A DNA stretch of 64,000 nt from Spirochaetia bacterium (GTDB lineage: Bacteria > Spirochaetota > Spirochaetia > SZUA-6 > Bin103): NCBI GenBank assembly GCA_965203515.1, contig OZ241907.1:989730-1053729 (forward strand). The letters run 5' to 3'. The stretch's first letter is position 1. Every line of letters starts with the position of its first letter. The notes beneath the pieces are model-generated. The model worked only from the letters and a program-made list of their open reading frames with translations, was not told the origin of the DNA and ran no database searches. A program made the translations under genes and the position numbers. Shown here in pieces: positions 26,311 to 46,096 of the stretch.

Positions 26311-26619
26311 ATGCTCGCCAAGCTGGGGGCCGTCGTGATTCTTGGATACCGGGACAAGCGAACCGAGCGGTTCGCCTCCGGAGAACGGGTCCCGGCGTTC
26401 CAGGAATTCGAGAGGCAGGCGGCGAAGCGACTGGCGATCCTGGACGCGGCACCGTCATTGGACACGTTGAGAGCGTTGCCAAGCAATCGTCTGGAAGCCC
26501 TCAAAGGGGATAGACAAGGGCAGTACGCGATTCGGGTAAACCTGCAATGGCGTATCTGCTTCTCATGGCCCACGAGCAGTCAGGGTCCGATCGATGTCGA
26601 AATCATCGACTATCATTAG
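26311..26619 (+). CDS. higB: HigB toxin (RelE/ParE superfamily plasmid-maintenance killer protein)
   Basis: RLEALKGDRQGQYAIRVNLQWRICFSW...VEIIDYH matches the HigB consensus; precedes higA. A GTG at about 26335 is an alternative start. Confidence 0.8.
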   Translation: MLAKLGAVVILGYRDKRTERFASGERVPAFQEFERQAAKRLAILDAAPSLDTLRALPSNRLEALKGDRQGQYAIRVNLQWRICFSWPTSSQGPIDVEIIDYH

Positions 26620-26678: not shown

Positions 26679-26993
26679 ATGGAGATGAGAATGTTTAAGA
26701 GAGCCGTTCATCCTGGAGAGGTTCTGCGAGACGAGCTCGCGGAAATGGGAGTGAGCCGGACCACCTTTGCGCGCGAAATCGCCGTGCCGCCGAATCGTGT
26801 CGGACAGATCATCGCCGGAAAGCGTTCCGTGACGGGGGACACTGCCTTGCGATTCGGGCATTGGTTCGGAGTCGATCCTCAATTCTGGCTGAATCTGCAG
26901 GCTCAGTTCGACTTGGTGACCGCCGATCAGCGAGTCGGAGCGGTCATCCGGGAGCTGCCCACCGCAGACCGAGTCGAGACCGGGTATGAATGA
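26679..26993 (+). CDS. higA: HigA antitoxin (XRE-family HTH)
   Basis: VHPGEVLRDEL...GDTALRFGHWFGVDPQFWLNLQAQFDL is a near-textbook HigA. Confidence 0.85.
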   Translation: MEMRMFKRAVHPGEVLRDELAEMGVSRTTFAREIAVPPNRVGQIIAGKRSVTGDTALRFGHWFGVDPQFWLNLQAQFDLVTADQRVGAVIRELPTADRVETGYE

Positions 26994-26999
26994 ACCCGC

Positions 27000-27974
27000 T
27001 CAACGTTGATCGATCGTCTCGGCTCGCGTGAAGTTCATGTACCTGCCGGACGAAATCCGGCGCGCCCGCTGGCGACCGGTGACGCCGAGCGCGGCCCGCG
27101 TCGCCTCGTCGTCCAGACCGCCATGGCCGATCAAGGCGCGGGCGGCGGCAAGGCTGATCGGCGCTCGCCAGATCGGCCAAGTGAAGGAGAAGGCGCCGTG
27201 ATCCCGGGAGCCGCCGAGTAGCTCCAATCGAATGTCCGGTCCCCTCCGACGCGGCGTCACGGTCAAGACGGACAGACCGACCGCGGCGAGTCGGTTGGCG
27301 CCGTGCTGGGTGGTCTCCTTGGTCTTCGCGTCGGTCGGATCGGTCGCGCGAAGTGCGTGGCGCACGTCCTCATGCGGGTCCCAGCGAAACGACTGCGTCG
27401 CATCCAACCGTTCCCACGGGAGGAACAGCGCTTCGCGAAGGCACTCGCCTTCCGTGATCGCGACCTTGGAGCGGCCCGTGCCTCGGGCAGGAGGCGTCCG
27501 TTCCTGCAGCACGGAGCCCAACCGTTCCAGGAAGTGTTGGCGACCTTGGCCGAACAACAGACACAGCGGCGTCGGTTCCGCTTCCTGTTGCTTGTCCCGA
27601 TCGCGAATCGCGGCGTCACTCACCAGTGCCGCCCACAGGTCGGCGGCATAGCGATCATCGCGGGACGCGCGGAGCTTTCCGGCGGCGTCCTCCGGCGACA
27701 ACTTCAAGTCCTTGACCGGTTCGAAGCGATGCCGGCCAGCCAGTTCCGCCAGCCCGGCCGCTACGGCCGTCACGATCGAATCTTCCGACACCGGCTGAGC
27801 CACGTGCAGCACCGGCCGCACCGGCGGGTCGTCGACAGTCCACGAGACTCGCGGCAGCCACGACGGCTCGGCTTCTTCGAGAACCCGCAGCAGCCCCAGC
27901 AGCGCCATGAAGGCGAGCAGATTGTCCGGCTCGAGGCCGCTCAGACGGTGGCGTATCTCTGCGTTCATTGCCAT
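27000..27974 (-). CDS. CRISPR-associated protein, putative Cas8u-like large subunit (Csb3/Cas8u1-type; tentative)
   Basis: Last gene of the effector operon; its ATG shares one base with the cas3 stop (TGATG). About 324 aa with no family recognisable by eye. Assignment rests on position and the gene order csb1-csb2-cas3-csb3 recalled for type I-U/I-G variants. Confidence 0.4.
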   Translation of the reverse strand: MAMNAEIRHRLSGLEPDNLLAFMALLGLLRVLEEAEPSWLPRVSWTVDDPPVRPVLHVAQPVSEDSIVTAVAAGLAELAGRHRFEPVKDLKLSPEDAAGKLRASRDDRYAADLWAALVSDAAIRDRDKQQEAEPTPLCLLFGQGRQHFLERLGSVLQERTPPARGTGRSKVAITEGECLREALFLPWERLDATQSFRWDPHEDVRHALRATDPTDAKTKETTQHGANRLAAVGLSVLTVTPRRRGPDIRLELLGGSRDHGAFSFTWPIWRAPISLAAARALIGHGGLDDEATRAALGVTGRQRARRISSGRYMNFTRAETIDQR

Positions 27975-30922
27975 CAACTCCCGTCGGACGCTCGATGGTC
28001 GGCAAGGCGCAGGATCGTCTCCAGCCGCGCAAGTCCCCAGGTCCCATAGTTCCGTTTGAGCCGCTCGAACATGGTGGCCCAATCAAGGCCGTCGTAGGCG
28101 AAGGCGAGCGACTGCGGCCCCGGACCGGGTCCCACGCGCCATCGGTCGACATCCAGGCAGCGGGACAGACCGTGCCCGGCGGTGCTTGCCTGCGGGTCGG
28201 CGAAGCCGAAGAACGGCCGCCCCAGTCCGTGGTGGGTCCCGATGAGCCACAACACGAGAGCGGGATCATGCGCCTCCGCAAAGCGACGGTGCGCCATCGC
28301 CATCCGTACCGACAGCGCCTCATGCCGCCACCCGTCCGGCAAGCCGGCTCGCTGCCACGCGTTTGGCGAGGATGGTCTTCCGCTCTTGGCCCGCGGCGGA
28401 CCGTCGGGACGGTTCCACCAGTCGCCGCCGGACAGAAACGTCTGGAAGCGTGAGTCGGCCTTTCCGGCGTCGTGCAGGAACGCGGCGAGGCTCAGGTCGG
28501 CGGCTACCTTCGCCGGCATGCCAAGAGTTCGCGTGAAGCGCTCTACGAACGCGACGACATCGCTGCAATGGTCATTCACCGTGACCGGATGGCCCGGTTG
28601 GCGCGACGTGTGCGAGAGCGTTTCGTCTTCGGTGACCGGCGCTGCCAGATCACTTTCGCTGGATTCTCCCATGAGGCCGTGAGGCGCCACGAGGATGGCG
28701 CCGCTCGCGGGATTGCCTTGTTCGTAAGGGAAGTGCAACCTGATCCGTCCTCTCGCGTCTCTGAGCGACATGAGCGGTGCGCGGACGCAGCGCGGCGGCA
28801 TGTCCTCGTCGGTCGTACCGGCGTCAGCTTCCGCGGTCTCGGCCGGGAGTGCGTCCAGAAGGAGTTCCACCAGCTCGCGCCCGTCGGCCCCGTCGGCTCC
28901 GAGCGCTTCCTCGACGCGTTCCCACTCCGCATCGCTGCGGACCGTGTCGCGGGCTACGCGGACCGAGTAGCGCCGGTGGCGATAGGGCCACATCGCTTCG
29001 TGGGCCATGTCCCTGACGGGCCGTTGTCGATCGGTCGAGCGCCCCGGTTCCTTGGCGATCGGGTTCCAGCCGAATTCGTCGCACCCGCCGTACTCCGCGG
29101 GAACGATCAGCAGGTCGCCGGGTCGCAGGTCCTCCGCGCTGACGATCCCGGTCCGAGGGTCGTCGGACCCAGCCCATCGAAATACCTTCGTTCCCGTCCG
29201 CTCCGTTCGTCCGGCCCGGTCTGACTCGTCCCGCGCCGGCACGTCGGCGATAGCCGCGCGCGCAGAACGGCCGTTCAGCCATGCGGTCACAGACCAGATC
29301 GGAAGCTCAACCATCTCGGCGGTGCGTGGCGGAACCAGCTCCATGATCGTCTTGAGATCGGTGCCGGTTTCGTCGCTCAGGTCGGATGAGTCAATGTCGC
29401 TTCGCCATACGAGGGATACGTCGGCGGACGCGCGATCGGCTCCATGGAGGAACAGACCGACCTCCGGGTCGGCGGCCGGCGGCGGCGAGGTCTGCGACCA
29501 GAGATCGAGATATGCAGGCATCAGAACCGGCGCCTGCGCGCGGGGAGCGGCAAGTTCGGCGGCATCGAGAGCAGCCTCGTTCAGGCGGCGTTGGAACGCC
29601 GTCACGCCGAAGTCCAGGTCACCATCGCCGGCGATCAGGGTAAGGGCGTTCCAGGTCTTGCGAATGCGGTCGCCGTAGATGGGATCGTCGGCCTTCTTGC
29701 TCAATTCGTCGGCCATCACGAGGATGGCGCCGGCTGCCGGAATCGCTCGGCCGGCGCGGTTCAATCGTCCGAAGCGCTGGCGGAGCGCATCGAGAGGGGC
29801 GGCCTGCGTTACCAACCCGTCGAGGTCGAGATCGACCCCCACCTCCAGGCACTGGGTGGCGACGACGAACAAGGCGGCAGCGTCATCGCGGGCGCCGGTA
29901 TGATATGGAGCAAGCTGGCACGCGATCCGGTCTCGGTCGACGTCGCGCGAACGGCCGATCATCAGCAGGGCCTCAGACGAAGATGCGCTCTTGCTCCGCA
30001 GCTTGCGGAAGATCTCGCGCGCCAGATCTACCCGGTTCACGACGACGCCGACCGCCGGCGACGGCACGCCGCCGGTTCGCAACCGATCCGCCATCTTGAT
30101 GGCGGCATCGGTAAAGGCATCCGCAGCGGGTGTCCGAACCGGCTTCTCCAGGCTGGTCGGTTTCGATGCTTCGAGCCGCTCCTTCAGGATGGGATGGACG
30201 CGATCGTCGGGCGTAAGGGAAAAGGTCCGTTGTTCCGAATCCCCCGGCGTCGCCGAGAGGAGAGCGGTCTTGATACGCGTGCCCCCGATCTGTTGCACGT
30301 CGGCGAGGGTACGCCGGAACGGTTCGGACAGATGCGCTTCGTCGAGGAGGATCAAGCTGTCCGAACCCAGGAGGCCGGCGTGTACGGGTCTCATACGGTT
30401 GGAGACCCCGTAACCGCGGAACAGAAGTCGTGATCCGACCTGATCGACGGTCGAGCAGACGATCGTCGGCTGCGTCGGGGTTCGTGCCCAGTCATGTTCC
30501 AGTGGCGCTCCGCCGCGCAGCTTCCGAGCAACGAGCGGCGGCGCGCCGTCGCCGGCCAGGAGTTGCAGCCGGTCCGCGACTTCCCGGACCACCGCGCTGC
30601 CGTTCTTCTCGTCGGACGGAGGAGCGGCGAGGGCGCTGGCTATTCTCTCGGCCCGTGCGAACGCGTCATCCACCACCAGCCGCCGGTCGACGACCAGCGC
30701 CATCCTCAACGCTGCCTTCCGCGGCGCGTCCGCGCGCAGCGCCAGATGAAACACGGCAATATCCAAGGCCGCCGTCTTGCCGGCGCCGGTAGGCAAGTCC
30801 AATACCGGCGGCCAAGCATCGTCTTCGGCAAGCAGATCGATCAGTGCCTGCTGCCAGGGGAACGGATCGTGGTCGTGCACTGCGCGGAAGTAGTGGGCGA
30901 AATCGCTCGGACCAAGCTGCAT
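27974..30922 (-). CDS. cas3: Cas3 helicase with C-terminal HD nuclease domain
   Basis: DEAH-box helicase motifs (LDLPTGAGKT, LLDEAH) and C-terminal HD motifs (FLHDAGK, WRHEALS, GTHHG). HD at the C-terminus is typical of type I-G. Start ATG MQLGPSDF at 30922. Confidence 0.85.
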   Translation of the reverse strand: MQLGPSDFAHYFRAVHDHDPFPWQQALIDLLAEDDAWPPVLDLPTGAGKTAALDIAVFHLALRADAPRKAALRMALVVDRRLVVDDAFARAERIASALAAPPSDEKNGSAVVREVADRLQLLAGDGAPPLVARKLRGGAPLEHDWARTPTQPTIVCSTVDQVGSRLLFRGYGVSNRMRPVHAGLLGSDSLILLDEAHLSEPFRRTLADVQQIGGTRIKTALLSATPGDSEQRTFSLTPDDRVHPILKERLEASKPTSLEKPVRTPAADAFTDAAIKMADRLRTGGVPSPAVGVVVNRVDLAREIFRKLRSKSASSSEALLMIGRSRDVDRDRIACQLAPYHTGARDDAAALFVVATQCLEVGVDLDLDGLVTQAAPLDALRQRFGRLNRAGRAIPAAGAILVMADELSKKADDPIYGDRIRKTWNALTLIAGDGDLDFGVTAFQRRLNEAALDAAELAAPRAQAPVLMPAYLDLWSQTSPPPAADPEVGLFLHGADRASADVSLVWRSDIDSSDLSDETGTDLKTIMELVPPRTAEMVELPIWSVTAWLNGRSARAAIADVPARDESDRAGRTERTGTKVFRWAGSDDPRTGIVSAEDLRPGDLLIVPAEYGGCDEFGWNPIAKEPGRSTDRQRPVRDMAHEAMWPYRHRRYSVRVARDTVRSDAEWERVEEALGADGADGRELVELLLDALPAETAEADAGTTDEDMPPRCVRAPLMSLRDARGRIRLHFPYEQGNPASGAILVAPHGLMGESSESDLAAPVTEDETLSHTSRQPGHPVTVNDHCSDVVAFVERFTRTLGMPAKVAADLSLAAFLHDAGKADSRFQTFLSGGDWWNRPDGPPRAKSGRPSSPNAWQRAGLPDGWRHEALSVRMAMAHRRFAEAHDPALVLWLIGTHHGLGRPFFGFADPQASTAGHGLSRCLDVDRWRVGPGPGPQSLAFAYDGLDWATMFERLKRNYGTWGLARLETILRLADHRASDGS

Positions 30923-30927
30923 GCGCG

Positions 30928-32454
30928 TCAACCCCCCGGACCGCGCAGACCGCGGCACAACCCCAACCCGGTAAAGCGGCCGGCACCGAGCAATACCGGG
31001 CCTTCGGTCACGTCGCCGAAGTCGATGACGGCGTGCACCAGCGCCCGGCTGGCAAGCTGCTCCGGGACGTTCCAGCGCATCCACGGCGGCTCCCCGGACG
31101 ACGGCCGCGACGGCGGCGCGCCTTCTATCGCAGAGTGCTTGCCTACCTGAATCCGGTTGAGATCCGGGCGGGGCAGCCCGGTGTTCTCGCACGCACGCGC
31201 CACCAGATCGCGGACCTCGGTATCGTCGCGGCGTTTGAGATGACGATCCAGCACGATCGGGGTTACGCTGGCCCACACTCGCGCCGGCCGCACGTAGGGA
31301 TCAGGGGAGAGGGAGCGTTTGGTTTCCGTCCCGACGGGCGCCAGCCGCAACGGTGCGCGGAGCGGCGCTCCTTTCAGTTCCAGCACCCGCCGCTCCTCAC
31401 CCGGGTCGTACCGCGCGATCGTCTCGAAGGCCGCCCGGAATCCGGGAATATCGGGCAGTCTGGTTTGCGGCGGGGGCACCAGGGCAAAGCCGAACACCCG
31501 TCCATCCGCATGCGGGAAGCCGGTGAACGCCAGCGGCACGATCGCAAGGTGAGGGTAGCGGGTGGGTGCTCGATCCGGCGTGTGCCCGGAGACGACCTCC
31601 GGGATACGATGCGCCAAGTCGATACGCCGGTACCCGCTCATCAGCGCCCGTCGCAGGGCTCGGCAGACCAACGCCGCGGCGCGGATGTCGGGAACGGTTC
31701 CGGAAATCGCCTCAAGTACGAGCCAACCGGGCGGCTGAGGGTCCGCAGCCGGTTCCGGGGCGGGCGGAACAACCGCCGCTCCGGGGGAGATCACCGGCCG
31801 TATTGGGTTGGTGCGGTACGCGCGCTCCAGTTCTTCCAGGCGGCCGGGATAGATATGCCGTCGGGCCGGGGCCGCGGCGTGTTCCTGCGCCGTGCCGTTT
31901 CCATAGGCGAATCGGCAGCGAACCAGGCTGGCCGAATGACCGACGTAGCCGACGTCGCGCGCGATGTTGTCCAACGCGCGCACCATGGCAGGTTCCGGCG
32001 ACTGATGCCACGCCAGCGTCATGAGCGGATCGTCGGGGCGAGCCACGGGAAACCGGCGCTCTTTCCGGGTCCGGGTCTCCGGGAGCACCGATTGTGCCGT
32101 CACCCAATCCTTGAAGCCGCTCGCGGGCGGCCGAATACCGCGTGCCAAATAGTCGCGGAACCATTTCAACTGCCCGAGGTCCCGCGCCGGTGTCGCCGAA
32201 TCGTTCGGCGGCACGAATACCTCCGGTGTGGTGCGTGCCGTGTGGCCACTGGCATGCACGTCCGGCGGCGACTGCCGTTCGAGCCATTCGAGCGCCTGTC
32301 GCTCCTCGGCGCGTTCGCCGCGTGCAGCCCACGCGGAAACGAGCGCCGAGAACACCCGATCCGTCTGTGGCGGCCAATCCGGCGCCGTATTCGCCGGTCC
32401 GCGGGCGGCTCGACAGACGCCGGTCAGGAACTCGATCTCCAGGGCGAGGCTCAT
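30928..32454 (-). CDS. csb2: Cas5-Cas6 fusion (Csb2/GSU0054 family)
   Basis: Starts MSLALEIEFLTGVCRAA (Csb2-like); about 509 aa; ATGA overlap with the cas7 stop. Confidence 0.7.
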   Translation of the reverse strand: MSLALEIEFLTGVCRAARGPANTAPDWPPQTDRVFSALVSAWAARGERAEERQALEWLERQSPPDVHASGHTARTTPEVFVPPNDSATPARDLGQLKWFRDYLARGIRPPASGFKDWVTAQSVLPETRTRKERRFPVARPDDPLMTLAWHQSPEPAMVRALDNIARDVGYVGHSASLVRCRFAYGNGTAQEHAAAPARRHIYPGRLEELERAYRTNPIRPVISPGAAVVPPAPEPAADPQPPGWLVLEAISGTVPDIRAAALVCRALRRALMSGYRRIDLAHRIPEVVSGHTPDRAPTRYPHLAIVPLAFTGFPHADGRVFGFALVPPPQTRLPDIPGFRAAFETIARYDPGEERRVLELKGAPLRAPLRLAPVGTETKRSLSPDPYVRPARVWASVTPIVLDRHLKRRDDTEVRDLVARACENTGLPRPDLNRIQVGKHSAIEGAPPSRPSSGEPPWMRWNVPEQLASRALVHAVIDFGDVTEGPVLLGAGRFTGLGLCRGLRGPGG

Positions 32455-33674
32455 TCTTCTTCGTCGCGACCCGCGCCTTCGAGCGCCAGCTCGCGGCTGC
32501 GCCGAACGATTTCGACCAGCTTGGGCTGTGGAGTCAGCGTGAGCGACCGGAAGCCAAAGCCGGCCTTCTCGGCATTCCGGTACGATTCGAGATACAGCTC
32601 CCGCGCCTCCGCCCGGTCCAACTCGATCGTCTCCGTGGTACCGTCGGCGTGCACTACCTCCAACGGGGCGGCTCCATCGCACACAAGGTCGCAACGGGAA
32701 CGCAACGCGTAACCGTACGCATCCTGTTCGCAGAGCGCTACCAGACCGAGCGCGGCGAGCAGCGCCCGCCCGGCGGTATCGCGAGTGCCACCGCCGAACC
32801 GCAACCGTCTCAGCCCGGCCAGCGTGATCACTGCCCGGTGCTCGGCATAGGCACAGGTCACGCCAAGAGGCTGAATGGAAGGTGCGATATTGCTGTGATT
32901 GATCTCGGAAGGGCGGACCTTCTTGGCGCCTTTGCCGGCACCGCCTTGTTCCGTACTCCAGCCTGCTGGTCCCTTGAACACTTCGACTTTGCGGAGAACG
33001 CCTAGCGGATCGATGCGGCTGCCGGTACGCCGGCCAGCGTTCCGAGGCTCCGTTGTCCGGGCTTGTGGGTCCATTTCGACTTCTACCGGAGTGTCCACCC
33101 CGATGATCTCCGAGACGAGCGCACGCGGGAACTTGGCGCCAAGTCCGCCTCCTTCACCCTGGCTGTGCCATGCGCCGAAGATCAGCGCCGTCGGGGACAG
33201 CTCGAGCAATGCGGTCGCGTCAGCCGGCTTCGCCGCGGCGAGGCGGCGGCCCTGCTCGCTCTGCATGAACGGTACACCGTCCAGGAAGCTGTCACGCAGA
33301 ATCGCGTCGTACACGCGGTGCGGCGCCTCCAGTGAGGTGATCCGCTCCAGCGGATGCAGGCCGGCATCGCTGAAGTCCACGGTGACGTACGGCAGAGGCA
33401 GTGCGTCTCCGTCAGTGGCGGCACTCAGCAGCGCCTCTTCGAGTCGATTTGCCTGGCTCTGGACACTGTCGATCAGAACGCACCACACGTCCTTGCCATC
33501 GTTCCGCCGACGTTCGAACACGTGGCGCGGTGGGTCTCTGTGCTGTTCACCGGGATAGGTTGGCGGAAAGATCTTGTCGCCGACGCCGCCAGCGGGCTGC
33601 AGACGCCGGATCCGGCGGATGGCAGCATGGCTGGAGATGGCGTCATTCAGTATCGAGATGGAACTCATAGTCAC
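32451..33674 (-). CDS. csb1: Cas7 (Csb1 family) backbone protein of type I-G Cascade
   Basis: N-terminal RLQPAGGVGDKIFPPTYPG is Csb1-like; 407 aa. GTG start at 33674; alternative ATG at 33668. Confidence 0.7.
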   Translation of the reverse strand: MTMSSISILNDAISSHAAIRRIRRLQPAGGVGDKIFPPTYPGEQHRDPPRHVFERRRNDGKDVWCVLIDSVQSQANRLEEALLSAATDGDALPLPYVTVDFSDAGLHPLERITSLEAPHRVYDAILRDSFLDGVPFMQSEQGRRLAAAKPADATALLELSPTALIFGAWHSQGEGGGLGAKFPRALVSEIIGVDTPVEVEMDPQARTTEPRNAGRRTGSRIDPLGVLRKVEVFKGPAGWSTEQGGAGKGAKKVRPSEINHSNIAPSIQPLGVTCAYAEHRAVITLAGLRRLRFGGGTRDTAGRALLAALGLVALCEQDAYGYALRSRCDLVCDGAAPLEVVHADGTTETIELDRAEARELYLESYRNAEKAGFGFRSLTLTPQPKLVEIVRRSRELALEGAGRDEEE

Positions 33675-34460
33675 TCCTGTCTTTGGTCTTCGATCTGAAG
33701 ATCGTCGTCATCCCGTGGGGATGGGTCGTCGAATCCGAACGTGTCGTGTATTTCATGATACTCTCCACGAAACCATGACGTCAACTCTGAACGCCCCGAA
33801 GGGTAGTTACGTATTTCCTTTCGACCGCTTATGATACGCATCTTACGTTCACGATGAATGCGCTTGGTCATCTGCTGTGCCTCCAAATGGATGATTTTGC
33901 TCTGCAAGGATACTCGAAAATACAAGGAGACGAGGCCGGAGTCAAGTGTGGACTCCGGAAAGGAACGGCCGTCTCGGCCGCTCTGCAAGGGTACTCCCTT
34001 TAATCAGGCCCCAGCCCCGATCATGGTGGAGCCGGGGGGCCTCCCAAGATACTGCCTCAAGTCAGCGGTGACAACCTTCGTGCATCGCTGCTGCATCGAG
34101 GGGCCTGCTGAGAAGCCGGTCTTCGCGCTCAAGCTCTGATCCTGCGAGCGGCGCGGCCGGGCGATCCTCCATCGAGCCTGCTCGTGCTCGCCGCGGATCG
34201 GGCCGCGGCGCAGTGATGTGTCGCTGTGGTGTCAAGCACGCTTGCTCAAGGTCGCCGTCCGGTGCAGCCGAACATTGAAGAAGGCAGCCTATCCCGTGGG
34301 GACGAACGGCAGGCACAACGTGGGGCAGGAACCGGTTCCCTCCGATCGGAACCGGGCGGCGGACCGCGCGGGTCCGCGTGCCGACCCCCACCTGAAGCAA
34401 GGGGAGTGCTCATCTTCTCCCGCCGCCGCGCCGGAGGACCGCCCGCTGATTCCGGCGCGC

Positions 34461-36101
34461 ATGGTCAACGAGTTCCAATACTGCCCGCGGTTGGCGTACC
34501 TGGAATGGGTCCAGGGCGAATGGGCGGATTCGGCGGACACCGTGGAGGGGCGCTACGCGCACCGGCGGGTGGACCGCAACGGCGGCGCGCTGCCCGCGCC
34601 GGCGGACGTCGACCGGGAGGTCAAGCTGCATGCGCGGTCGGTCACCTTGTCATCGCCCCGGCTGGGGCTGATCGCGCGCATGGACCTGATCGAGTCGGAC
34701 GGAGCCGAGGTCGTACCGGTCGACTACAAGCGCGGCAAGCGACCGCACGTCGAGCGCGGTGCGTACGAGCCGGAGCGGGTGCAGCTCTGCGTGCAGTGCC
34801 TGATCCTGCGCGAACACGGCTACGCGTGCGACGAAGGCGTGCTGTACTTCGCCGCCAGCCGGGAGCGAGTGCGCGTGGCGTTCGACGACGAACTGATCCG
34901 GACGACGCGGCGGGCGATCAATGGGCTGCGCGACGTGGCCGCCGCCGGCGTGCTCCCGCCGCCGCTGGATGACAGCCCGAAGTGCCCGCGCTGCTCGCTG
35001 GTCGGCATCTGCCTGCCGGACGAGATCAATCATCTCAGCCTGTTGTCCCACTCCCAAGCGGCGCCCCGGCCGATCGCGGTGCCGTCCACCGATGCGCTTC
35101 CGCTCTACGTGCAGGCGCACGGAGCGAAGGTGGCCAAGTCGGGCGAGACCCTGGTCGTCAGCGTCGACGACCGCAAGGTGGCGAAGGCACGGCTCGTCGA
35201 CGTGTCCCAGGTGGTCCTCATGGGAAGCGTGTACCTCACCACGCCGTGCCTGCAGGAACTGATGTGGCGAAACATCCCCGTCACCTGGCACAGCCACGGC
35301 GGTTGGTTCTACGGGCATACGGTCGGCAACGGCCACAAGAACGTGGAACTGCGGACCGCCCAGTACCGGGCGAGCTTCGACGCCTCGACCTGCCTGCGCT
35401 TCGCCCGCGACGTGGTATGGGCCAAGATCGCGAACTGCCGCACCCTGCTGCGGCGCAACTGGAAGCGGCCCGACGACAACCGGGACGTGCTGATCGAACT
35501 GAAGGAGGACGGCCGGCAGGCGCGGCGGGCGGACTCTCTGGCCGCGCTGCTCGGCATCGAGGGGGCCGCGGCGGCGCGCTACTTCCGCGCGCTTCCTGCG
35601 CTGTTGAGCGACAGCGCGGCGGAACAGGCCGCGTTCGACTTCCACAAGCGAAATCGGCGTCCGCCGACCGATCCGGTCAACGCGTTGCTGTCGTTCGCGT
35701 ACTCGCTGCTGGTCCGCGCCTGGACCGTGACGCTCACGGCGGTCGGGTTCGACCCGTTTCGGGGACTGTACCACCAGCCGCGTTACGGCCGGCCCGCGCT
35801 GGCGCTCGACCTGATGGAGCCGTTCCGGCCGCTGATCGCCGACTCGGTGGTGATGCAGGCGATCAACAACGGCGAGGTGCGCCCGGCGGACTTCACGACC
35901 GTGACGGGCAGCGTCGCTCTGACCCCGGACGGCCGCCGCCGCGTCATTTCGGCCTTCGAGCGCCGTCTGAGCCATGAGATCGTCCATCCGCTGTTCGGCT
36001 ACCGCGTCAGCTACCGCCGGCTGATGGAAATGCAGGCGCGGCTGCTGGGTCGCTTCCTGCTGGGAGAGATACCGGTGTATCCGAACTTCACCACCCGGTG
36101 A
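34461..36101 (+). CDS. cas4-cas1: Cas4-Cas1 fusion
   Basis: N-terminal Cas4 with [12 protein letters not shown] and C-terminal cysteines ([11 protein letters not shown]), then a Cas1 body. ATG at 34461; ORF is open upstream to 34218 (GTG). Confidence 0.9.
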
Positions 36102-36111
36102 CGGCGGACTG

Positions 36112-36402
36112 ATGGCCGACCATTTGTACTTGGTCGCCTATGACATCGCCGATCCCCGGCGCTGGCGCATGGTGTTCAGGCTGATGAACGGATACGGGGA
36201 ATGGCTTCAGCTCTCGGTGTTCCAGTGCCGGATGAATCGCACCCGTCGAGTGGAGTTGGTTGCGCGTCTCGACGGAGTGATAGATCATGGCGAGGATCAT
36301 GTGGTGCTGGTCGACCTGGGTCCCGCGGACAACGTGCAGCCGCGCGTCGTGAGCCTGGGGAAGCCGTTCCACCCGGTGCGGCGGGAGCCGATGGTCGTAT
36401 GA
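36112..36402 (+). CDS. cas2: Cas2
   Basis: 96 aa, [19 protein letters not shown]...; typical Cas2 immediately after cas1. Confidence 0.9.
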
Positions 36403-36475
36403 CCGCCCGCCGGCGAGTAGCGAGCGCTTCGGTGCCGCCGGGTACCCGGGGAGCGCTCGCGGGTAGCGTAGGTCT

Positions 36476-36504
36476 TTGACATTCTGAACGTTATGGTATA
36501 TGGT
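36476..36504 (+). promoter_or_regulatory. CRISPR leader promoter (TTGACA-17-TATGGT) within the 36403-36610 leader
   Basis: AT-richer leader between cas2 and the first repeat; -35 TTGACA at 36476-36481 and -10 TATGGT at 36499-36504, oriented toward the array. Confidence 0.45.
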
Positions 36505-36610
36505 GAAGCTGTCCCGTGAGGGGGGTCCGCTCATCATGCCATCGGTCTTCCGTCCAGCTCTCGCGGCCCGATTGTCTATTCGACGACCCGTCGAGAGTTG
36601 GACGGGGTAC

Positions 36611-39600
36611 GTTTCCGGGGGAGAAATCCCCCGGCCTCATTGAAGCGAGTCGAAGCGCGGGCCGGACGGCGAGCCATGGCAGCCGGTTTCCGGGGGAGAA
36701 ATCCCCCGGCCTCATTGAAGCATTTTCTTCGTGACCGAAGAAAAATGGAAGTCCTTTTCGTTTCCGGGGGAGAAATCCCCCGGCCTCATTGAAGCGGACC
36801 CGCAGGCGGCGCAGCGCTCCTGAGACACGAGGTGTTTCCGGGGGAGAAATCCCCCGGCCTCATTGAAGCGCCACCGCGTCGACCAGCACCTGCAGATCCT
36901 CGGGCGGAGTTTCCGGGGGAGAAATCCCCCGGCCTCATTGAAGCGCCCAGACCTGTAGCGGAGACCCGTCAGCCATGCGCACCTGTTTCCGGGGGAGAAA
37001 TCCCCCGGCCTCATTGAAGCAACGTGGTCGAAGTCTGCGACTCGACCTGGCTGCGGTAAGTTTCCGGGGGAGAAATCCCCCGGCCTCATTGAAGCCAGCT
37101 CCGCAAAGGAGCCGCAGAGCTCGGGACATCGTTGTTTCCGGGGGAGAAATCCCCCGGCCTCATTGAAGCTCTCGTCGTATCGGGCCCGCCGTGCCGTCCA
37201 TTTGTCGTGTTTCCGGGGGAGAAATCCCCCGGCCTCATTGAAGCGAGACTCGAGCGGGCGGACGCGCTGGCTCCCCCCCGGCGGTTTCCGGGGGAGAAAT
37301 CCCCCGGCCTCATTGAAGCAAGAATCTTGTCAAGTATTGCTTTGGTGTATGACTTCGCTGCGGGTTTCCGGGGGAGAAATCCCCCGGCCTCATTGAAGCG
37401 GCAGGTGCTGCAGTCACGTCTGGTGCTCTGATCTGTTTCCGGGGGAGAAATCCCCCGGCCTCATTGAAGCGGTCGACTCCGGGTCCTCCCAGCGTGTGTC
37501 GAGATAGGTTTCCGGGGGAGAAATCCCCCGGCCTCATTGAAGCAGATTATCCGGCGTCAGCTCGTCGCGGCTGCTGCACGCGTTTCCGGGGGAGAAATCC
37601 CCCGGCCTCATTGAAGCGATGAGTGCATAGCACGATGGACGCGGACGGCCAATCGGTTTCCGGGGGAGAAATCCCCCGGCCTCATTGAAGCGGGTACAGC
37701 GTCAACCGAGCCCAACACGTGTTGGGTAGTTTCCGGGGGAGAAATCCCCCGGCCTCATTGAAGCATTCAACCCTCCTACCTTGAGTATACGGAATACCTG
37801 GGGTTTCCGGGGGAGAAATCCCCCGGCCTCATTGAAGCACAAGGCTCAGACCGGCCAGGACAATGCCGGCATGGGAAGTTTCCGGGGGAGAAATCCCCCG
37901 GCCTCATTGAAGCGTGGACGGAATGGCAGACGATCGGGGCGCAGCGAAGGGGGGGCGTTTCCGGGGGAGAAATCCCCCGGCCTCATTGAAGCACCTTCTT
38001 GGCGCCCCAGCCCTTCGCGGCCAGCTCCGGGTTTCCGGGGGAGAAATCCCCCGGCCTCATTGAAGCACGCTCCACCTCCGGCTGCCGCTGCGCCCGGTGC
38101 TCCGCGCGTTTCCGGGGGAGAAATCCCCCGGCCTCATTGAAGCGCCTCGACCATCTTGTCCTGCCAGGCGGATACTCCAGTTTCCGGGGGAGAAATCCCC
38201 CGGCCTCATTGAAGCCTGGCGGTGGACTACCTGTTCAACCCGATCCCAGACGTTTCCGGGGGAGAAATCCCCCGGCCTCATTGAAGCGACCCGTTATTAT
38301 CTGATTCCACCCACAGGCCAAGGGTGTTTCCGGGGGAGAAATCCCCCGGCCTCATTGAAGCCCAATCTTGCGTTGCGCTTGGTGGAGCGAGGTCTCATTG
38401 AGTTTCCGGGGGAGAAATCCCCCGGCCTCATTGAAGCATGACCAGTACAGGCGGACAATATCGATTCGTTCAGCTAGGTTTCCGGGGGAGAAATCCCCCG
38501 GCCTCATTGAAGCAGATGTTCGGCGGTGATGCGGCGGACGTGCTCGGTACGGCGGTTTCCGGGGGAGAAATCCCCCGGCCTCATTGAAGCGTATTATGGC
38601 GTGCGCACCGTTGCAGCAATTGACGTCTCAGTTTCCGGGGGAGAAATCCCCCGGCCTCATTGAAGCTACCACTGCAGATCGGTGACGGCAGCGGCCATCA
38701 GCGCGTTTCCGGGGGAGAAATCCCCCGGCCTCATTGAAGCATGTTCAGCGCGCCGTTGTCCGTGATATTCCAGAGCAGTTTCCGGGGGAGAAATCCCCCG
38801 GCCTCATTGAAGCTGGCAGATGGCCGTGTCCAGTACAGAGAAGCTGGGTTTCCGGGGGAGAAATCCCCCGGCCTCATTGAAGCATAACGTTACCAACGTT
38901 TTTTTCGTGATCGGAGTTGACTGTTTCCGGGGGAGAAATCCCCCGGCCTCATTGAAGCAGCCGGCGTAGGTCTCGCCGTCGTCAAAGGTGACGGTGTTTC
39001 CGGGGGAGAAATCCCCCGGCCTCATTGAAGCTCAAGTAGTTTGCGGTATTTCTGACAGGCTGTTCAGGTTTCCGGGGGAGAAATCCCCCGGCCTCATTGA
39101 AGCGACAAGTAGTATGGATGCCATCGAAGACGGCATATCCATGTTTCCGGGGGAGAAATCCCCCGGCCTCATTGAAGCCTGGACGTGCTGACCGGCGACC
39201 CGGACCTGCCGCACCTGCAGTTTCCGGGGGAGAAATCCCCCGGCCTCATTGAAGCTTTTCGTGATTTTCCCGAAAAGAATTTGCATCCGGGGGTTTCCGG
39301 GGGAGAAATCCCCCGGCCTCATTGAAGCTGGCGCGTGAGCAATAATTCGGCGCAGAATTTCAAGGTTTCCGGGGGAGAAATCCCCCGGCCTCATTGAAGC
39401 ACGGACGGCCGACCACAAGCCCACGCTACTAGAGTGGTATGTTTCCGGGGGAGAAATCCCCCGGCCTCATTGAAGCAGCAGCCCGAAGACGCCCTCGTCG
39501 ATGTGCGACATCGCCGTTTCCGGGGGAGAAATCCCCCGGCCTCATTGAAGCGCGTAGGCGATCGTCGTCGAGATCGACGCGATCTTGCCTGTTTCCGGGG

Positions 39601-40676
39601 GAGAAATCCCCCGGCCTCATTGAAGCGCCTTGTCGCCCTTGGCCTTGTCGCCGTCCGCAGACCCCTGCAAGTTTCCGGGGGAGAAATCCCCCGGCCTCAT
39701 TGAAGCGCGGCCGACCTTCCGGCCCTCCTGGAAGAGCTTGTTGAGTTTCCGGGGGAGAAATCCCCCGGCCTCATTGAAGCGCGGCGATCGGCGTGTCGTC
39801 GTCGAGCGAGGCCAAAGGGGTTTCCGGGGGAGAAATCCCCCGGCCTCATTGAAGCAGAGGAATCAACTTTATAGACCAAAGGAGAAACAGAAGTTTCCGG
39901 GGGAGAAATCCCCCGGCCTCATTGAAGCGAGGCCAGGCGGCAGCCGTCACGAACATCAACCAAGGCGCGTTTCCGGGGGAGAAATCCCCCGGCCTCATTG
40001 AAGCTTACGCACGAAGGCTGATTTGTCAGTCGGGGAGCCGGGTTTCCGGGGGAGAAATCCCCCGGCCTCATTGAAGCGGAGACGGTCAAGGGTAGGAGCC
40101 GCCCGTAGCCCGGTACGGTTTCCGGGGGAGAAATCCCCCGGCCTCATTGAAGCACACAAACGGTGAAAAGTGATAGGATGACAGTATGAGTTTCCGGGGG
40201 AGAAATCCCCCGGCCTCATTGAAGCAAGGCTGACGGAACGCAGGGGCACAGCTTGTTCAATGCGTTTCCGGGGGAGAAATCCCCCGGCCTCATTGAAGCC
40301 TGAATGCCTCTGCTGCACGTTGACGAAGTTTCCGAGTTTCCGGGGGAGAAATCCCCCGGCCTCATTGAAGCGTCGGCCGTCGGCCGTCCACGCCGGCGGC
40401 GTGCTGCTAGTTTCCGGGGGAGAAATCCCCCGGCCTCATTGAAGCGTCGCCGCCTGCGACGTGGAGTTGACCGACGACGGCACGGACGTTTCCGGGGGAG
40501 AAATCCCCCGGCCTCATTGAAGCGTCAACGTGCGCGGCGGACACGAGCTCGTAGGCCTGTTTCCGGGGGAGAAATCCCCCGGCCTCATTGAAGCAACAAA
40601 TACGACGAGACGAACGGAGCCCCGATCTTCGGGATCGACAGTTTCCGGGGGAGAAATCCCCCGGCCTCATTGAAGC
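36611..40676 (+). CRISPR. CRISPR array, leader-proximal part: about 55 repeats of GTTTCCGGGGGAGAAATCCCCCGGCCTCATTGAAGC (36 nt)
   Basis: Perfect 36-nt repeats with 35-45 nt unique spacers (period about 72-76). The repeat has an internal hairpin CCGGGGGA-GAAA-TCCCCCGG and ends ATTGAAGC. Confidence 0.97.
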
Positions 40677-40786
40677 TGCAACAACGTGGTCGTCACGGCG
40701 ACTAACAATGAGGGGCTTCCGGGTTTCGTGTGGGTAGGGCGCCCTGACGGTGGCGGTGGCGCCGCCAGCAAGGCTACGCTGGCGCC

Positions 40787-41752
40787 ATGCGTGACAAGGA
40801 ACTGTACGGCAGGATTCTGGGCGTCGAGGCACCGTGGCGAGTGGCCGACGTCGAACTGAACCTTCAGCAGGGCGAGATCGTGGTCCACGTCGAGCACGGC
40901 GGGCCGCTCACCTGCCCGCGCTGCGGCCAAGCCGCGCGCCGCTACGACAGCAGGCAACGGCGGTGGCGCCATCTGGACACCTGCCAGTACCGCACGGTTC
41001 TGGCCGCCGACGTACCGCGGTCTCAGTGCCGGCAGCACGGGGTCAAGCAGATCGAGGTGCCGTGGAGCGAAGGCCGCTCGCGGCTGACCGCGCTGTGCGA
41101 GGCGGTCGTGATCGACTGGCTGCAGCACGCCACGATCGCGGCGGTGGCGCAGCAGATGCGGCTCAGCTGGGACGAGGTCGACGGAGTGATGCAGCGCGCG
41201 GTGCACCGCGGCTTACAGCGGCGCGAGGTGCAGCTGCCGCCGCGGATCGGCGTGGACGAGACGTCGTTTCAGAAGCGCCATGAGTACGTGACGGTGATCA
41301 ACGATCTGGACGGGCACGTCGTGCACGTGGCCGATGGCCGCCGCAAGGAGGTGTTGGAGGAGTTCTACCAGCAGTTTGACCATGAGCAGTTGGCTGCTGT
41401 CGAGACGGTCGCCATGGACATGTGGGAGCCGTACATCATCGCGACCGCCGCCTACGTGCCGGACGCGGAGCTCAAGATCGCGTTCGACAAGTTTCACGTC
41501 GCCCGGCACCTCGGCAACGCCGTTGACCAGGTACGGCGAGCCGAGAGCCGCCGGCTGGCCGGCAGCGGTGATGATCGGCTGAAGGGCAGCCGCTATGCGT
41601 GGCTGACCAACCCCGAGCACATGGATGCCGAGCGTTGGCGGCAGTTCGCTGACTTGCGGGACAGCGCGCTGCAGACCGCGCGCGCCTGGGGCTACAAGGA
41701 ACATGCGATGACGCTGTGGAAGTACCGCTCTCGCGGGTGGGCGTGGAGTTGA
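40787..41752 (+). pseudogene. ISL3-family transposase, N-terminal portion (interrupted by IS3 insertion)
   Basis: 322 aa with a zinc-finger-like N-terminus (CPRCGQ) and the ISL3 DDE region; ends ...LWKYRSRGWA where the nested IS begins. Confidence 0.8.
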
Positions 41753-43063
41753 CCCGCTTTCGTGGACACATCAAGAGTGAGGACGAGAGGAGGGAATACG
41801 ATGGCGAGAACGCATCAAGCGTATCCACAGGAGTACCGCCAGCAGATGGTCGAGCTGATCCGTGCCGGCCGCACGCCGGAGGACCTGGCGCAGGAGTTTG
41901 AGCCGTCTGCCGGCTCGATCCGCAACTGGGTCGCGCAGGACGAGCGCGACGCCGGGCAGCGCAGCGACGGGCTCATCGGTGAGGAACGTCAGGAGTTGCG
42001 CCGCCTGCGCCGCGAGAACAAGCAGCTACGGATCGAGCGTGACATCTTAAAAAAGCAGCGGCTTGGTTCGCACGGGAGAGCGACTCGATCCCGGAGCGGG
42101 ATTCCGGTTCGTGAAGGCGAATCAGGCCACGTGGCCGGTGCGCACCCTCTGCCAGGTGCTGGGTCTCTCCCCCAGCGGCTACTACGCATGGGTGCGCCGC
42201 AGGCCGTCGGCGCGAGCGCGGCGGGACGCGCAGTTGATGGGGCGCATCAAGGAGGTCTGGACCGCCAACCGCGAGGTGTACGGCCGGCTGCGGATACACG
42301 CGGAGTTGCAGGCAGCCGGCGAACGGGTCAGCGCGAAGCGGGTCGGGCGACTGATGCGGCGCGCCGGGATCGCGGGGGTGAGCCGCCGGCGTACGACGCG
42401 CACGACTACGCGCGAGCAGCGAGCGGAGCGGGTAGCCCCAGACTTGGTAGAGCGGAACTTCGCGGCGACCGAGGCGGATCGGTTGTGGGTGGCCGATATC
42501 ACCTATGTGACGACGTGGGCGGGATTTCTGTACGTGGCGGTGGTGCTTGATGCGTGGAGTCGGCGCGTGGTCGGCTGGTCGATGGCCGCGCACCTGCGGA
42601 CCGAACTGGTCCTGGATGCGCTGAACATGGCGATCTGGCGGCGTCGGCCGCAGGGCGTGGTGCACCACAGCGACCAGGGCGCGCAGTACACGTCGATCGC
42701 CTTCGGGCAGCGGTGCCGGCAGGCCGGAGTGAGACCGTCGACCGGCTCGGTGGGCGATGCGTATGACAACGCGCTGTGCGAGAGCTTCTTTGCGACGCTG
42801 GAGTGCGAGTTACTGGATCGTCACCGGTTCGGCGGTCGGGCCGAAGCGCGCATGGCGGTATTCGAGTTCATCGAGGGGTTCTACAACCGGCGCCGGCGCC
42901 ACTCGGCACTGGGCTACCGGTCGCCGGTTGCCTTCGAGGCCGACGAAGCCGAGGCAGCAGCATGACGATCGGCTTGACGGCCAACGCCATCGCGAGGACT
43001 GTTCCTCTGCGACGGGGTTGTGCACATCAGAGGTTACCCGTCCACCAAACCGGGACAACTCCA
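41744..43063 (+). mobile_element. IS3-family insertion sequence nested inside the ISL3 transposase gene
   Basis: About 1320 bp. Terminal inverted repeats TGGAGTTGACCCGCTTTCGTGGAC at 41744 and GTCCACCAAACCGGGACAACTCCA ending at 43063 (19/23 matches), starting TG and ending CA. Likely 3-bp GCG duplication. Removing it restores the ISL3 reading frame (RGWA-RKAWQAWY). Confidence 0.7.
41801..42965 (+). CDS. IS3-family transposase OrfA/OrfB with programmed -1 frameshift
   Basis: OrfA (MARTHQAYPQEYRQQMVELIRAG, HTH) to about 42060; slippery A-AAA-AAG at about 42045. OrfB in the -1 frame (42063-42965) carries an rve DDE integrase core (WVADITYV ... HSDQGAQYTS ... ESFFATLECE). Confidence 0.85.
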
Positions 43064-43361
43064 GGCGCGCAAGGCGTGGCAGGCGTGGTACCGGTCGGCG
43101 ATCCGGTGTCGTCTGGAGCCGGTCAAGCGGGTAGCGCGGATGGTCAAGCGTCATCTGGAAGGGATCGTGACGGCGGTGGTGCAGGGGGTGAGCAACGCGC
43201 GGGCGGAGTCGATCAACGCGGGGGTGCAGAGGTTGAAGTACGCAGCGCGCGGCTTTCGCAACCGGCAGAGGTTCCGCAACGCCATCTACTTTCACCTCGG
43301 CGGCCTTGACCTCTACCCTGCCGGTGTCGGCCGTGACCACCTCGTCCACACGAAAGCCTGA
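43020..43361 (+). pseudogene. ISL3-family transposase, C-terminal portion
   Basis: QARKAWQAWYRSAIRCRLEPVKRVARMVKRHLEGI...AAR GFRNRQRFRNAIYFHLGGLDL matches ISL3 transposase C-termini. Confidence 0.8.
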
Positions 43362-43379
43362 AGACCCAACAATGATTGG

Positions 43380-46096
43380 GTTTCCGGGGGAGAAATCCCC
43401 CGGCCTCATTGAAGCATCTGGCGGCTCGGCTACCGCTTCACGGTCTGCACGCCGTCCAGTTTCCGGGGGAGAAATCCCCCGGCCTCATTGAAGCAGGCCG
43501 GTCCCACGATGCGGTTCAGCGTCTTGTAGAGTTTCCGGGGGAGAAATCCCCCGGCCTCATTGAAGCGACGTCGTGCAGCGGGGCGCTGACGCCGAAGTAG
43601 CTGAGCCCCGGCAGTTTCCGGGGGAGAAATCCCCCGGCCTCATTGAAGCGACCTGGCTGCGGTGACGGGCTGCCCGACCTGGAGAGGGTTTCCGGGGGAG
43701 AAATCCCCCGGCCTCATTGAAGCTGTTGCAAAGACTCGATATGCATTCGGTAGTTGCGCATGTTTCCGGGGGAGAAATCCCCCGGCCTCATTGAAGCTTT
43801 ACCGCCGATCTGTGTCTTGTACTCGGCCGCGGACCGGGTTTCCGGGGGAGAAATCACCCGGCCTCATTGAAGCGAAATTCATCGACCTGACGCGAGAATT
43901 CATCCAGGACGGTTTCCGGGGGAGAAATCCCCCGGCCTCATTGAAGCCCTCCTATCGTGGTCGCATATTCCGCGGCCGAGCGGTTTCCGGGGGAGAAATC
44001 CCCCGGCCTCATTGAAGCAAGGTCATGCGGCCGTCGCCGGGACCCCATGTATCGCGTTTCCGGGGGAGAAATCCCCCGGCCTCATTGAAGCGCACGCCGC
44101 GCGGCTCGCTGCCGTGGGACCGCGAGGCGGTTTCCGGGGGAGAAATCCCCCGGCCTCATTGAAGCACTGCTTTGCCGATGAACGACTCGTCCCACTTGGC
44201 TTTGAGTTTCCGGGGGAGAATCCCCCGGCCTCATTGAAGCCCTTCGAGCTTGACCTTCACCGTCTCCCCCTCCTTCGAGTTTCCGGGGGAGAAATCCCCC
44301 GGCCTCATTGAAGCATGGCGGGGCCGGATGCCGGCGACGGCGAGGATCAGGACGATGTTTCCGGGGGAGAAATCCCCCGGCCTCATTGAAGCTTTGCGCA
44401 ACCGCTTGACGCTCGTAAAGCGCCTACCTTGTTTCCGGGGGAGAAATCCCCCGGCCTCATTGAAGCCGCTGTCCCCGGTGGTGCGGTCGCGCCTGGTCGC
44501 CCACGTTTCCGGGGGAGAAATCCCCCGGCCTCATTGAAGCAATGGTTTGTTCAATGGTGGACGCTGGTTTCCGGGGGAGAAATCCCCCGGCCTCATTGAA
44601 GCATGCAGGCCGTCGCCGCCACGACGACGATCGACGACGTGGGTTTCCGGGGGAGAAATCCCCCGGCCTCATTGAAGCCGGTTGCCAGCGGCAAACTGCA
44701 CCGCCACCGCACGTTTCCGGGGGAGAAATCCCCCGGCCTCATTGAAGCATCACCCGGTAGTCCGCCTCGATCTGCCGCCGCACGGCGTTTCCGGGGGAGA
44801 AATCCCCCGGCCTCATTGAAGCATGCACTCCTCGATCAGCTTGTGCGCCACCTGCAGCCGCTCGTTTCCGGGGGAGAAATCCCCCGGCCTCATTGAAGCG
44901 TCTGTGCCGAGCGGTCGGAAGACGATGATCCACGGCTGTTTCCGGGGGAGAAATCCCCCGGCCTCATTGAAGCGCCGCGCCGATCTTCGCGTCGGTGATT
45001 GCGGCCACTGCCAAGTTTCCGGGGGAGAAATCCCCCGGCCTCATTGAAGCGTCTGTGCCGAGCGGTCGGAAGACGATGATCCACGGCTGTTTCCGGGGGA
45101 GAAATCCCCCGGCCTCATTGAAGCGAGGCGGCGGCGAAGTCCACCCCCGACGCCTCCAGGCTGTTTCCGGGGGAGAAATCCCCCGGCCTCATTGAAGCAT
45201 CGGGGAAGTGAGGGCCGGCAAGCGGCGGGGCGTGGTGCGTTTCCGGGGGAGAAATCCCCCGGCCTCATTGAAGCAACTCCGCCTCGGCGCCGTGAAGCGC
45301 GCCCTTGGCCTTGTCGGCGTTTCCGGGGGAGAATCCCCCGGCCTCATTGAAGCGGATCGTCCCAGGCGCCGGTCTGCCCCTCGATGCCGAAGTTTCCGGG
45401 GGAGAAATCCCCCGGCCTCATTGAAGCAGCATGGCAGCCGTGATCCTGTCTACCTTCACAGCCGCGGTTTCCGGGGGAGAAATCCCCCGGCCTCATTGAA
45501 GCGCGCCCGGCACGTGGCGCGCGCGCACCGGACAGGCGACAGTTTCCGGGGGAGAAATCCCCCGGCCTCATTGAAGCTAGCGCCCCGGGGTCCGCCGGCG
45601 CTGGATCGACGCCCCGTTTCCGGGGGAGAAATCCCCCGGCCTCATTGAAGCGTGGTCGAGAGACTGGCGCCGGACGCCACCCGCCCCTTGTTTCCGGGGG
45701 AGAAATCCCCCGGCCTCATTGAAGCGTCGGCTGGCCGTGGACGTGAGCCGGCATCTCGCTGGAGGTTTCCGGGGGAGAAATCCCCCGGCCTCATTGAAGC
45801 GATGTCTGACCCGGCGGCGCCGCCGGACCCTCTGACCGTTTCCGGGGGAGAAATCCCCCGGCCTCATTGAAGCACTTCCGATACGCCGTCGACCGAACGC
45901 GGCCGTGGAAGTTTCCGGGGGAGAAATCCCCCGGCCTCATTGAAGCCTGTCCGATGCGGTGGCATCGGTCTTCGGCCTGGGACATGTTTCCGGGGGAGAA
46001 ATCCCCCGGCCTCATTGAAGCGGTCCGAGGCTGTGCATGCTCCCGCGGCGGCCCACGTCGGTTTCCGGGGGAGAAATCCCCCGGCCTCATTGAAGC
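43380..46096 (+). CRISPR. CRISPR array, leader-distal part: about 37 repeats of the same 36-nt unit
   Basis: Same repeat as at 36611-40676. Degenerate variants at about 43838 (CACCCGG), 44206 and 45319 (35 nt, one A lost). A duplicated spacer at about 44900-44937 and 45051-45088. Array ends at about 46096. Confidence 0.97.

Follow-up and report, generated by a model that had tools for sequence, protein, structure and literature searches.

Type I-G (formerly I-U) CRISPR-Cas systems carry csb2 as their signature gene. In Thioalkalivibrio sulfidiphilus, whose Cascade is represented by PDB entry 8b2x ('Structure of the type I-G CRISPR effector', with Csx17 as the large subunit in chain M), Cas3 is a stable component of Cascade and is kept there by the large subunit Cas8g (PMC9638904), and the genes are ordered cas3-cas8g-cas7-csb2 (PMC10482374). 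The size of the I-G large subunit is variable (PMC9638904): Geobacter and Cereibacter systems encode a Cas8g2 (Csx14, TIGR04106) of ~290 aa, and that of Bifidobacterium animalis subsp. lactis (csb1, csb2, cas3, csb3, cas4-cas1, cas2) has a protein of ~350 aa, Csb3, instead of a long Cas8. I-U_csb3 and I-U_csx17 forms have been described in Salinispora (PMC4223832), and myxobacterial loci as 'csb1-csb2 followed by cas3-cas8u1 or cas3-csx17' (PMC11237760). Here we describe a CRISPR-Cas locus from a Spirochaetia bacterium (contig OZ241907.1), analysed within a window of 64,000 nucleotides with a G+C content of ~69%, whose CRISPR-Cas features lie within positions 27000-46096, and we address the nature of its 324-aa protein X, encoded next to cas3.

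The locus consists of a tightly packed operon on the minus strand, cas7g/csb1 - csb2 - cas3g - X, and of cas4-cas1, cas2, a 208-nt leader and a 92-repeat array on the plus strand. It shares its set of components with the B. animalis system, X taking the place of Csb3, and its Cas7, Csb2 and Cas3 with a C-terminal HD domain are those found in the Thioalkalivibrio Cascade. All six cas genes are intact, and every one of them matches type I-G profiles, by which the subtype is borne out. Taking these features together, the locus is a complete and probably functional type I-G system of the known variant with a short Cas8g (Csb3/Cas8u1-like), which has been named I-U_csb3 (PMC4223832) or 'cas3-cas8u1' (PMC11237760). 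By analogy with the studied systems, X would serve this variant as the large subunit that binds the backbone and holds Cas3g; we consider this reading of the locus as a whole likely, with a probability of about 0.85.

Profile matches of X and its relation to named large subunits

The gene of X (27974 to 27000, minus strand) begins with an ATG overlapping the stop codon of cas3 (TGATG). The first-pass annotation, made from the sequence alone, had considered X to be either a short large subunit of the Cas8u1/Csb3 type or something new, and had proposed a search with Cas profiles. In this search, X has matched over its full length the PADLOC large-subunit profile PDLC01514 ('Cas8g; CAS-I-U; effector_LS', E 3e-79, residues 9-321 on positions 4-286 of 287) as well as NCBIfam NF049934 ('type I-G CRISPR-associated protein, Cas3-extension family', 167.5 bits with a curated cutoff of 65 bits, E 5e-49, residues 11-318 on profile positions 1-298 of 299), and no family has been found in Pfam. 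The first option therefore holds, given the full-length Cas8g match and the homology to Csb3 and Csx17 described below, and the second is set aside by the two profile matches. Judged by its profiles, X is not new but is related, as a short version, to the alpha/beta domain at the N-terminus of Cas8g1/Csx17.

The family to which X belongs is large, with 1820 matches in 90% clusters and 1280 clusters at 50% identity, nearly all of them 300-350 aa in length. A scan of one genome per species has returned 407 genomes encoding a relative of X, which places the NF049934 branch in at least 407 species, and the closest relatives of the window locus have been found among Spirochaetia metagenome-assembled genomes. 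Four proteins of 1250-1350 aa (P0222, P0256, P0258, P0281) are natural fusions of a full-length Cas3g with X as the C-terminal domain, each matching TIGR02621 and then NF049934, and it is from such fusions that the NCBI name 'Cas3-extension family' derives. Similar fusions, of Cas3 with Cse1, are known from type I-E.

For comparison with Csb3, we have used the sequences of B. animalis Bl-04 and three others given in the supplementary material of Makarova et al. 2011 (PMC3150331). The shallow profile of these four has aligned with X collinearly but weakly (hhalign 5.8%). After deepening of both profiles, to 28 sequences for Csb3 and to 43 for X, the latter including the Thermus and Azotobacter proteins, the match has risen to 95.1% (E 3.4e-8) over 282 columns and covers both proteins end to end, at an identity of ~17% in the profile alignment. 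The AlphaFold models (pLDDT, the predicted local distance difference test, 73 for X and 89 for Csb3) show the same order of secondary-structure elements: both open with a beta-alpha-beta-beta-alpha unit at the N-terminus, continue through a helical middle, one long helix, a pair of hairpins and a pair of short helices, and close with terminal strands, the Csb3 model differing by an extra helix ahead of the last strands. Csb3 does not match NF049934, and its family comprises only 93 matches, of which those listed are named Csb3 or hypothetical and come from Actinomycetota. On this sequence evidence, the two are homologous at superfamily level, and X would be best described as belonging to a sister family of Csb3, not as a member of it.

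A relation has also been observed to the N-terminal part of Csx17. Searched against the PDB with Foldseek, the Csb3 model has had one significant match, which is 8b2x (649-residue target, E 4.4e-5, probability 1.00), and the deep X profile matches the 720-aa Csx17 chain 8b2x_M by sequence (hmmsearch, E 7e-5) in two collinear segments, Csx17 residues 7-48 and 284-339; the shallow X profile (A1) has found no match among PDB sequences. The C-terminal half of Csx17 is a Cas11-like helical bundle according to the authors of 8b2x (PMC9638904), and this half is missing from X. With 324 aa versus ~700 aa, only the N-terminal part aligning, and no match to the Csx17 models in NCBIfam at E up to 10, X falls outside Cas8g1/Csx17, and it may act like the N-terminal domain of Csx17 without being a Csx17.

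To Cas8g2/Csx14, X has shown no homology in single-sequence and profile comparisons; TIGR04106 in NCBIfam is not matched, the hhalign probability to the Cas8g2 profile is 0.5%, and the common part is limited to an N-terminal motif of ~40 residues. No homology has been found between Csb3 and Cas8g2 either. The sequence evidence thus links the 'Cas3-extension family', Cas8u1, the Cas8g of PADLOC and the N-terminal domain of Csx17 as one lineage, with Csb3 as its sister. Regarding nomenclature, the match list of Cas8g2/Csx14 contains IMG labels of both 'Csx14' and 'Csb3' within one Cas8g2 family; because of this double labelling, the public names of I-G large subunits are inconsistent.

Gene order, proposed mechanism and competing explanations

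The arrangement of the window has been compared with the best 80 of the 407 genomes encoding an X relative, one genome per species. In 68 of the 69 loci having enough upstream DNA, cas7-csb2-cas3-X is contiguous on one strand, the sole exception being a deletion remnant (L038), and a short cas8 gene directly follows cas3 in every locus examined. The first-pass annotation would have been refuted by an X unrelated to any Cas large subunit and absent from homologous loci; X is homologous to large subunits and follows cas3 in all related loci. The adaptation genes of the 80 loci are placed downstream on the same strand in 33, upstream and divergent in nine (L001, L002, L014, L019, L052, L055, L057, L063 and L076), as in the window, and out of reach in 37.

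The same order occurs in Thermus thermophilus, Azotobacter chroococcum, Streptomyces and Methylomagnum on annotated plasmids, where the fourth gene is annotated as 'hypothetical protein' yet matches NF049934; a tblastn search of X itself against plasmids has matched in Rhodothermus only. The I-U locus of T. thermophilus JL-18 plasmid pTTJL1802 is identical in order to the window, with cas7-csb2-cas3 followed by a 336-aa gene that CRISPRone calls cas8U1 (PMC5529391). Its product is related to X (NF049934 E 5.5e-16, hhalign 93.8%), although more divergent, its 59 bits falling under the cutoff of 65, and no adaptation genes are annotated within 7 kb on either side of the cas3 match. Geobacter and Cereibacter loci, which share the families of cas7, cas5/6, cas4-cas1 and cas2 with the window and have the gene of the large subunit directly after cas3 as well, show the reverse order of blocks (cas3-cas8g2-cas7-cas5/6 in Cereibacter), and the order of Thioalkalivibrio is likewise unlike that of the window. 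Exchanging the blocks [cas3-cas8] and [cas7-csb2] converts one I-G arrangement into the other, with the adjacency of cas3 and cas8 kept in both. The first-pass designation of the gene order as non-canonical is thus justified only relative to the Geobacter reference, whereas for this variant the order is regular, both in our 68 of 69 loci and in published ones (PMC11237760, PMC4223832).

Some relatives are decayed. L038 (1-9489) retains only the end of cas3 together with X, cas4-cas1 and cas2. In L021 (11767-20263), genes of an IS1380 transposase, of a group II intron's reverse transcriptase and of an integrase lie beside a second, truncated cas3g; a Csx17-type locus has been considered for this second cas3, which is instead a truncated remnant. 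An Actinomyces oris plasmid (L087, 5820-12698) has another I-U layout, with cas3, a 303-aa unassigned protein, a Cas6e-like gene, cas7 and csb2; its 303-aa cas3-adjacent protein has been rejected as a relative of X, sharing only a local 'W-P-x-W ... L-x-x-I' motif (probability 2%).

A mechanism for the system may be drawn up by analogy with the I-G systems of Thioalkalivibrio (PMC9638904, PMC10482374) and Bifidobacterium (bioRxiv 10.1101/2022.08.19.504415, PMC9335239). The array would be transcribed from the leader, and the Cas6-like C-terminal domain of Csb2 would cut each repeat 4 nt past the hairpin, leaving an 8-nt 5' handle AUUGAAGC and remaining on the 3' hairpin; such a cut has been determined in Thioalkalivibrio (PMC9638904), with which the geometry of the window repeat is consistent. 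Approximately seven Cas7g subunits would then polymerise along the spacer and coat it, and X would bind this backbone at the belly of the complex, holding Cas3g as a permanent subunit. Upon binding of a target beside a protospacer-adjacent motif (PAM), Cas3g would nick and unwind the invader DNA, and Cas4-Cas1 together with Cas2 would insert new PAM-selected spacers at the leader end. The constant adjacency of cas3 and X, the overlapping stop and start codons and the natural fusions all fit a role of X as the tether of Cas3. In Bifidobacterium, Csb1, Csb2, Csb3 and CRISPR RNA (crRNA) co-purify (bioRxiv 10.1101/2022.08.19.504415), and target binding requires Cas3 in B. lactis (PMC9335239). One could go further and imagine that the large subunit of the short-Cas8g variant has lost its Cas11-like half and become an appendage of Cas3g, translationally coupled here and fused elsewhere, such that Cas3-X together would act as the large subunit and a Cascade devoid of Cas3 would be blind to targets; we regard this extension as doubtful.

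Several points weigh against X as a large subunit. To our knowledge, no experiment has addressed any member of the NF049934 branch, the biochemistry being that of distant relatives. The X model on its own has retrieved nothing from the PDB below E 0.5 with Foldseek, no similarity between X and Cas8g2 has been detected, Csb3 is only ~17% identical to X, Csx17 matches it in segments only, and the curators at NCBI have chosen the family name 'Cas3 extension', not Cas8. Furthermore, the large-subunit chain of 8b2x is itself an AlphaFold model docked into density of ~8 Å (PMC9638904), and the Foldseek match of the Csb3 model is therefore one of model versus model. A search of both array halves against a phage collection has found no protospacer and has thus revealed neither PAM nor targets.

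The most serious competitor takes that family name literally and regards X as a detachable C-terminal domain of Cas3g which modulates Cas3 in an effector devoid of a large subunit. The position of X directly after cas3, the overlap of stop and start in the window and the existence of full-length fusions all speak in its favour. The full-length match of X to a Cas8g large-subunit profile and its homology to Csx17 and Csb3 argue against it, as does the co-purification of Csb3 with Csb1, Csb2 and crRNA in preparations lacking Cas3 (bioRxiv 10.1101/2022.08.19.504415). Since it is precisely Cas8g that tethers Cas3 in Thioalkalivibrio (PMC9638904), the terms 'Cas3 partner' and 'large subunit' describe one role, and we deem an effector without a large subunit unlikely. 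Less probable still is a ribonuclease function in crRNA processing, which was first suggested for Csb3 when Makarova et al. 2011 (PMC3150331) called it similar to repeat-associated mysterious proteins (RAMP, Cas6-like), and pointed to a conserved His that follows the first strand. X does have the N-terminal beta-alpha-beta-beta-alpha unit and a nearly invariant His9, but this residue is not invariant across the wider family, purified B. animalis Csb3 has been inert on repeat RNA (bioRxiv 10.1101/2022.08.19.504415), Cas6 activity is already supplied by Csb2, and fold and sequence matches point to a Cas8g large subunit; we give such a function hardly any credit.

One may also question the locus as a whole and see in its disrupted array a decaying remnant that is out of use. 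A nested insertion sequence (IS) indeed interrupts the array, and degenerate relatives exist, among them L038 and, in L021, a truncated second cas3. On the other side, all six cas genes are full length compared with the profiles, the repeats on either side of the IS are identical, and the insertion lies in a spacer at a distance of 55 repeats from the leader, which leaves the leader-proximal array expressible. A defunct locus is accordingly very improbable, although marginally less so than a ribonuclease role of X. The identity of 89 of its 92 repeats and the absence of any disrupted cas gene speak for recent activity of the locus.

Regarding the wider relevance of the large-subunit assignment, the locus represents, in well-preserved form, a variant that has been described since 2011-2014 and is now covered by curated profiles, and it carries little weight as a discovery. 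The NF049934 branch is nevertheless very widespread yet without a biochemically studied member, and a compact four-gene effector with built-in Cas3 could be of interest for genome engineering.

Other components of the locus and its surroundings

The hallmarks named in the first-pass annotation, a Cas4-Cas1 fusion, the Cas5-Cas6 fusion Csb2 and a Cas3 with C-terminal HD domain, have all been recovered by profile, the minus-strand order cas7-cas5/6-cas3-X and the opposite strand of adaptation genes and array have been confirmed, and the matches in NCBIfam, Pfam and PADLOC agree on I-G (I-U), none pointing to a different subtype. The helicase-nuclease Cas3g (30922 to 27974, minus strand, 982 aa) matches TIGR02621 over its full length (E 3e-232), with cas3_HD of NCBIfam at residues 783-903 and the Pfam domains DEAD, Cas3-like_C_2 and Cas3_HD. 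Csb2 (32454 to 30928, minus strand, 508 aa) matches TIGR02165 (E 7e-87, residues 3-501 on profile positions 2-490 of 492) and PF09609. Cas7g/Csb1 (33674 or 33668 to 32451, minus strand) is identified by TIGR02570 (E 2e-22) and PF09617 (E 2e-51), and it has found no match among PDB sequences; translation of cas7 probably begins at the ATG at 33668, for which there is an AGGAG Shine-Dalgarno site, and its stop overlaps the start of csb2 (ATGA). On the plus strand, the cas4g-cas1g fusion (34461 to 36101, 546 aa) matches NF049935 over its full length (E 4e-248) as well as Pfam Cas_Cas4 and Cas_Cas1, and is followed by cas2 (36112 to 36402; TIGR01573, PF09827). The third-position G+C of the effector genes (27000-33674) is 0.74-0.79 versus 0.85-0.95 in the flanking genes, and this difference suggests that the effector operon was acquired horizontally; cas2 (0.80) and cas4-cas1 (0.90) are nearer to the flanking genes.

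The two gene groups are separated by 786 bp (33675-34460), which the first-pass annotation had described as a 790-bp low-GC divergent promoter region. The low G+C of 61%, falling to 52% in the 326 bp beside cas7, compared with 69% in the window, has been confirmed, and promoter-like sites have been found on the minus strand upstream of cas7 at 33784-33755 and 33945-33917, with four such sites in 33500-36700 where 0.4 are expected. The region may, however, contain a small open reading frame (ORF). This putative ORF of 66 codons (33871 to 33671, minus strand) stops 2 nt short of the cas7 ATG, has a good Shine-Dalgarno site, GGAGG, 8 nt upstream of its own ATG, and is kept at the same place with 53-58% amino acid identity in the two closest Spirochaetia loci (L001, 4115-4312; L019, ~4097-4288). 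Family searches including PADLOC have found no match for it, and its codon positions give no clear signal (third-position G+C 0.50). Either a small gene or a conserved 5' region is conceivable. Loci of Vicinamibacterales and proteobacteria have conserved ORFs of their own, of 60-90 codons, just upstream of cas7. A single conserved family of such ORFs is not supported, as hidden Markov models from the ORFs of one clade do not detect those of others and there is no clear coding signal; that the small ORFs of several clades encode an undescribed small accessory subunit is a possibility weaker than that of Cas3-X as a joint large subunit.

The leader (36403 to 36610, plus strand) contains a promoter-like TTGACA-17-TATGGT at 36476-36504. 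The repeat that follows is a 36-nt unit, GTTTCCGGGGGAGAAATCCCCCGGCCTCATTGAAGC, present in 92 copies over 36611-46096, of which 55 identical ones form the leader-proximal part (36611 to 40676) and 37 the distal part (43380 to 46096). Only three copies, all distal, deviate: one has a single substitution (43838-43873), and those at 44206-44240 and 45319-45353 have the same 1-nt deletion, GAGAAATCC to GAGAATCC, on account of which they mimic long spacers. When folded, the repeat forms an 8-bp stem and leaves a 12-nt 3' tail that ends in ATTGAAGC, like the 36-nt I-G repeats of Bifidobacterium including B. animalis subsp. lactis, with their 8-bp hairpin and 12-nt tail (PMC7284854), and as a 36-nt hairpin repeat ending in TTGAAGC it agrees with the I-G repeats of myxobacteria (PMC11237760). 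One 38-nt spacer is present twice, at 44900 and 45051, two units apart, and the 91 spacers have no self-targets in the rest of the window.

The interruption of the array, a feature absent from the first-pass annotation, is due to an ISL3-family element of 2.66 kb (40712-43367, plus strand) within a spacer, bordered by an 8-bp target duplication, AACAATGA, and by 22-bp inverted repeats, GGGGCTTCCGGGTTTCGTGTGG and GGGTCTTCAGGCTTTCGTGTGG. The transposase gene of this element is in turn interrupted by an IS3-family element nested at ~41750-43057, and both transposases have Pfam matches.

Among the neighbouring genes, a pair of HigB-like toxin and helix-turn-helix antitoxin (26311-26619 and 26679-26993, plus strand) adjoins the end of X. 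Beyond it, a 1479-aa protein (21793-26232, minus strand) with a UvrD-type helicase core, weak GajB-like PADLOC matches and C-terminal tetratricopeptide repeats flanks the locus and may be a defence gene. Just past the array, the plus strand encodes a putative endonuclease of the Uma2 family (46966-47598), which matches the PADLOC candidate defence family PDC-S03 (E 6e-31).

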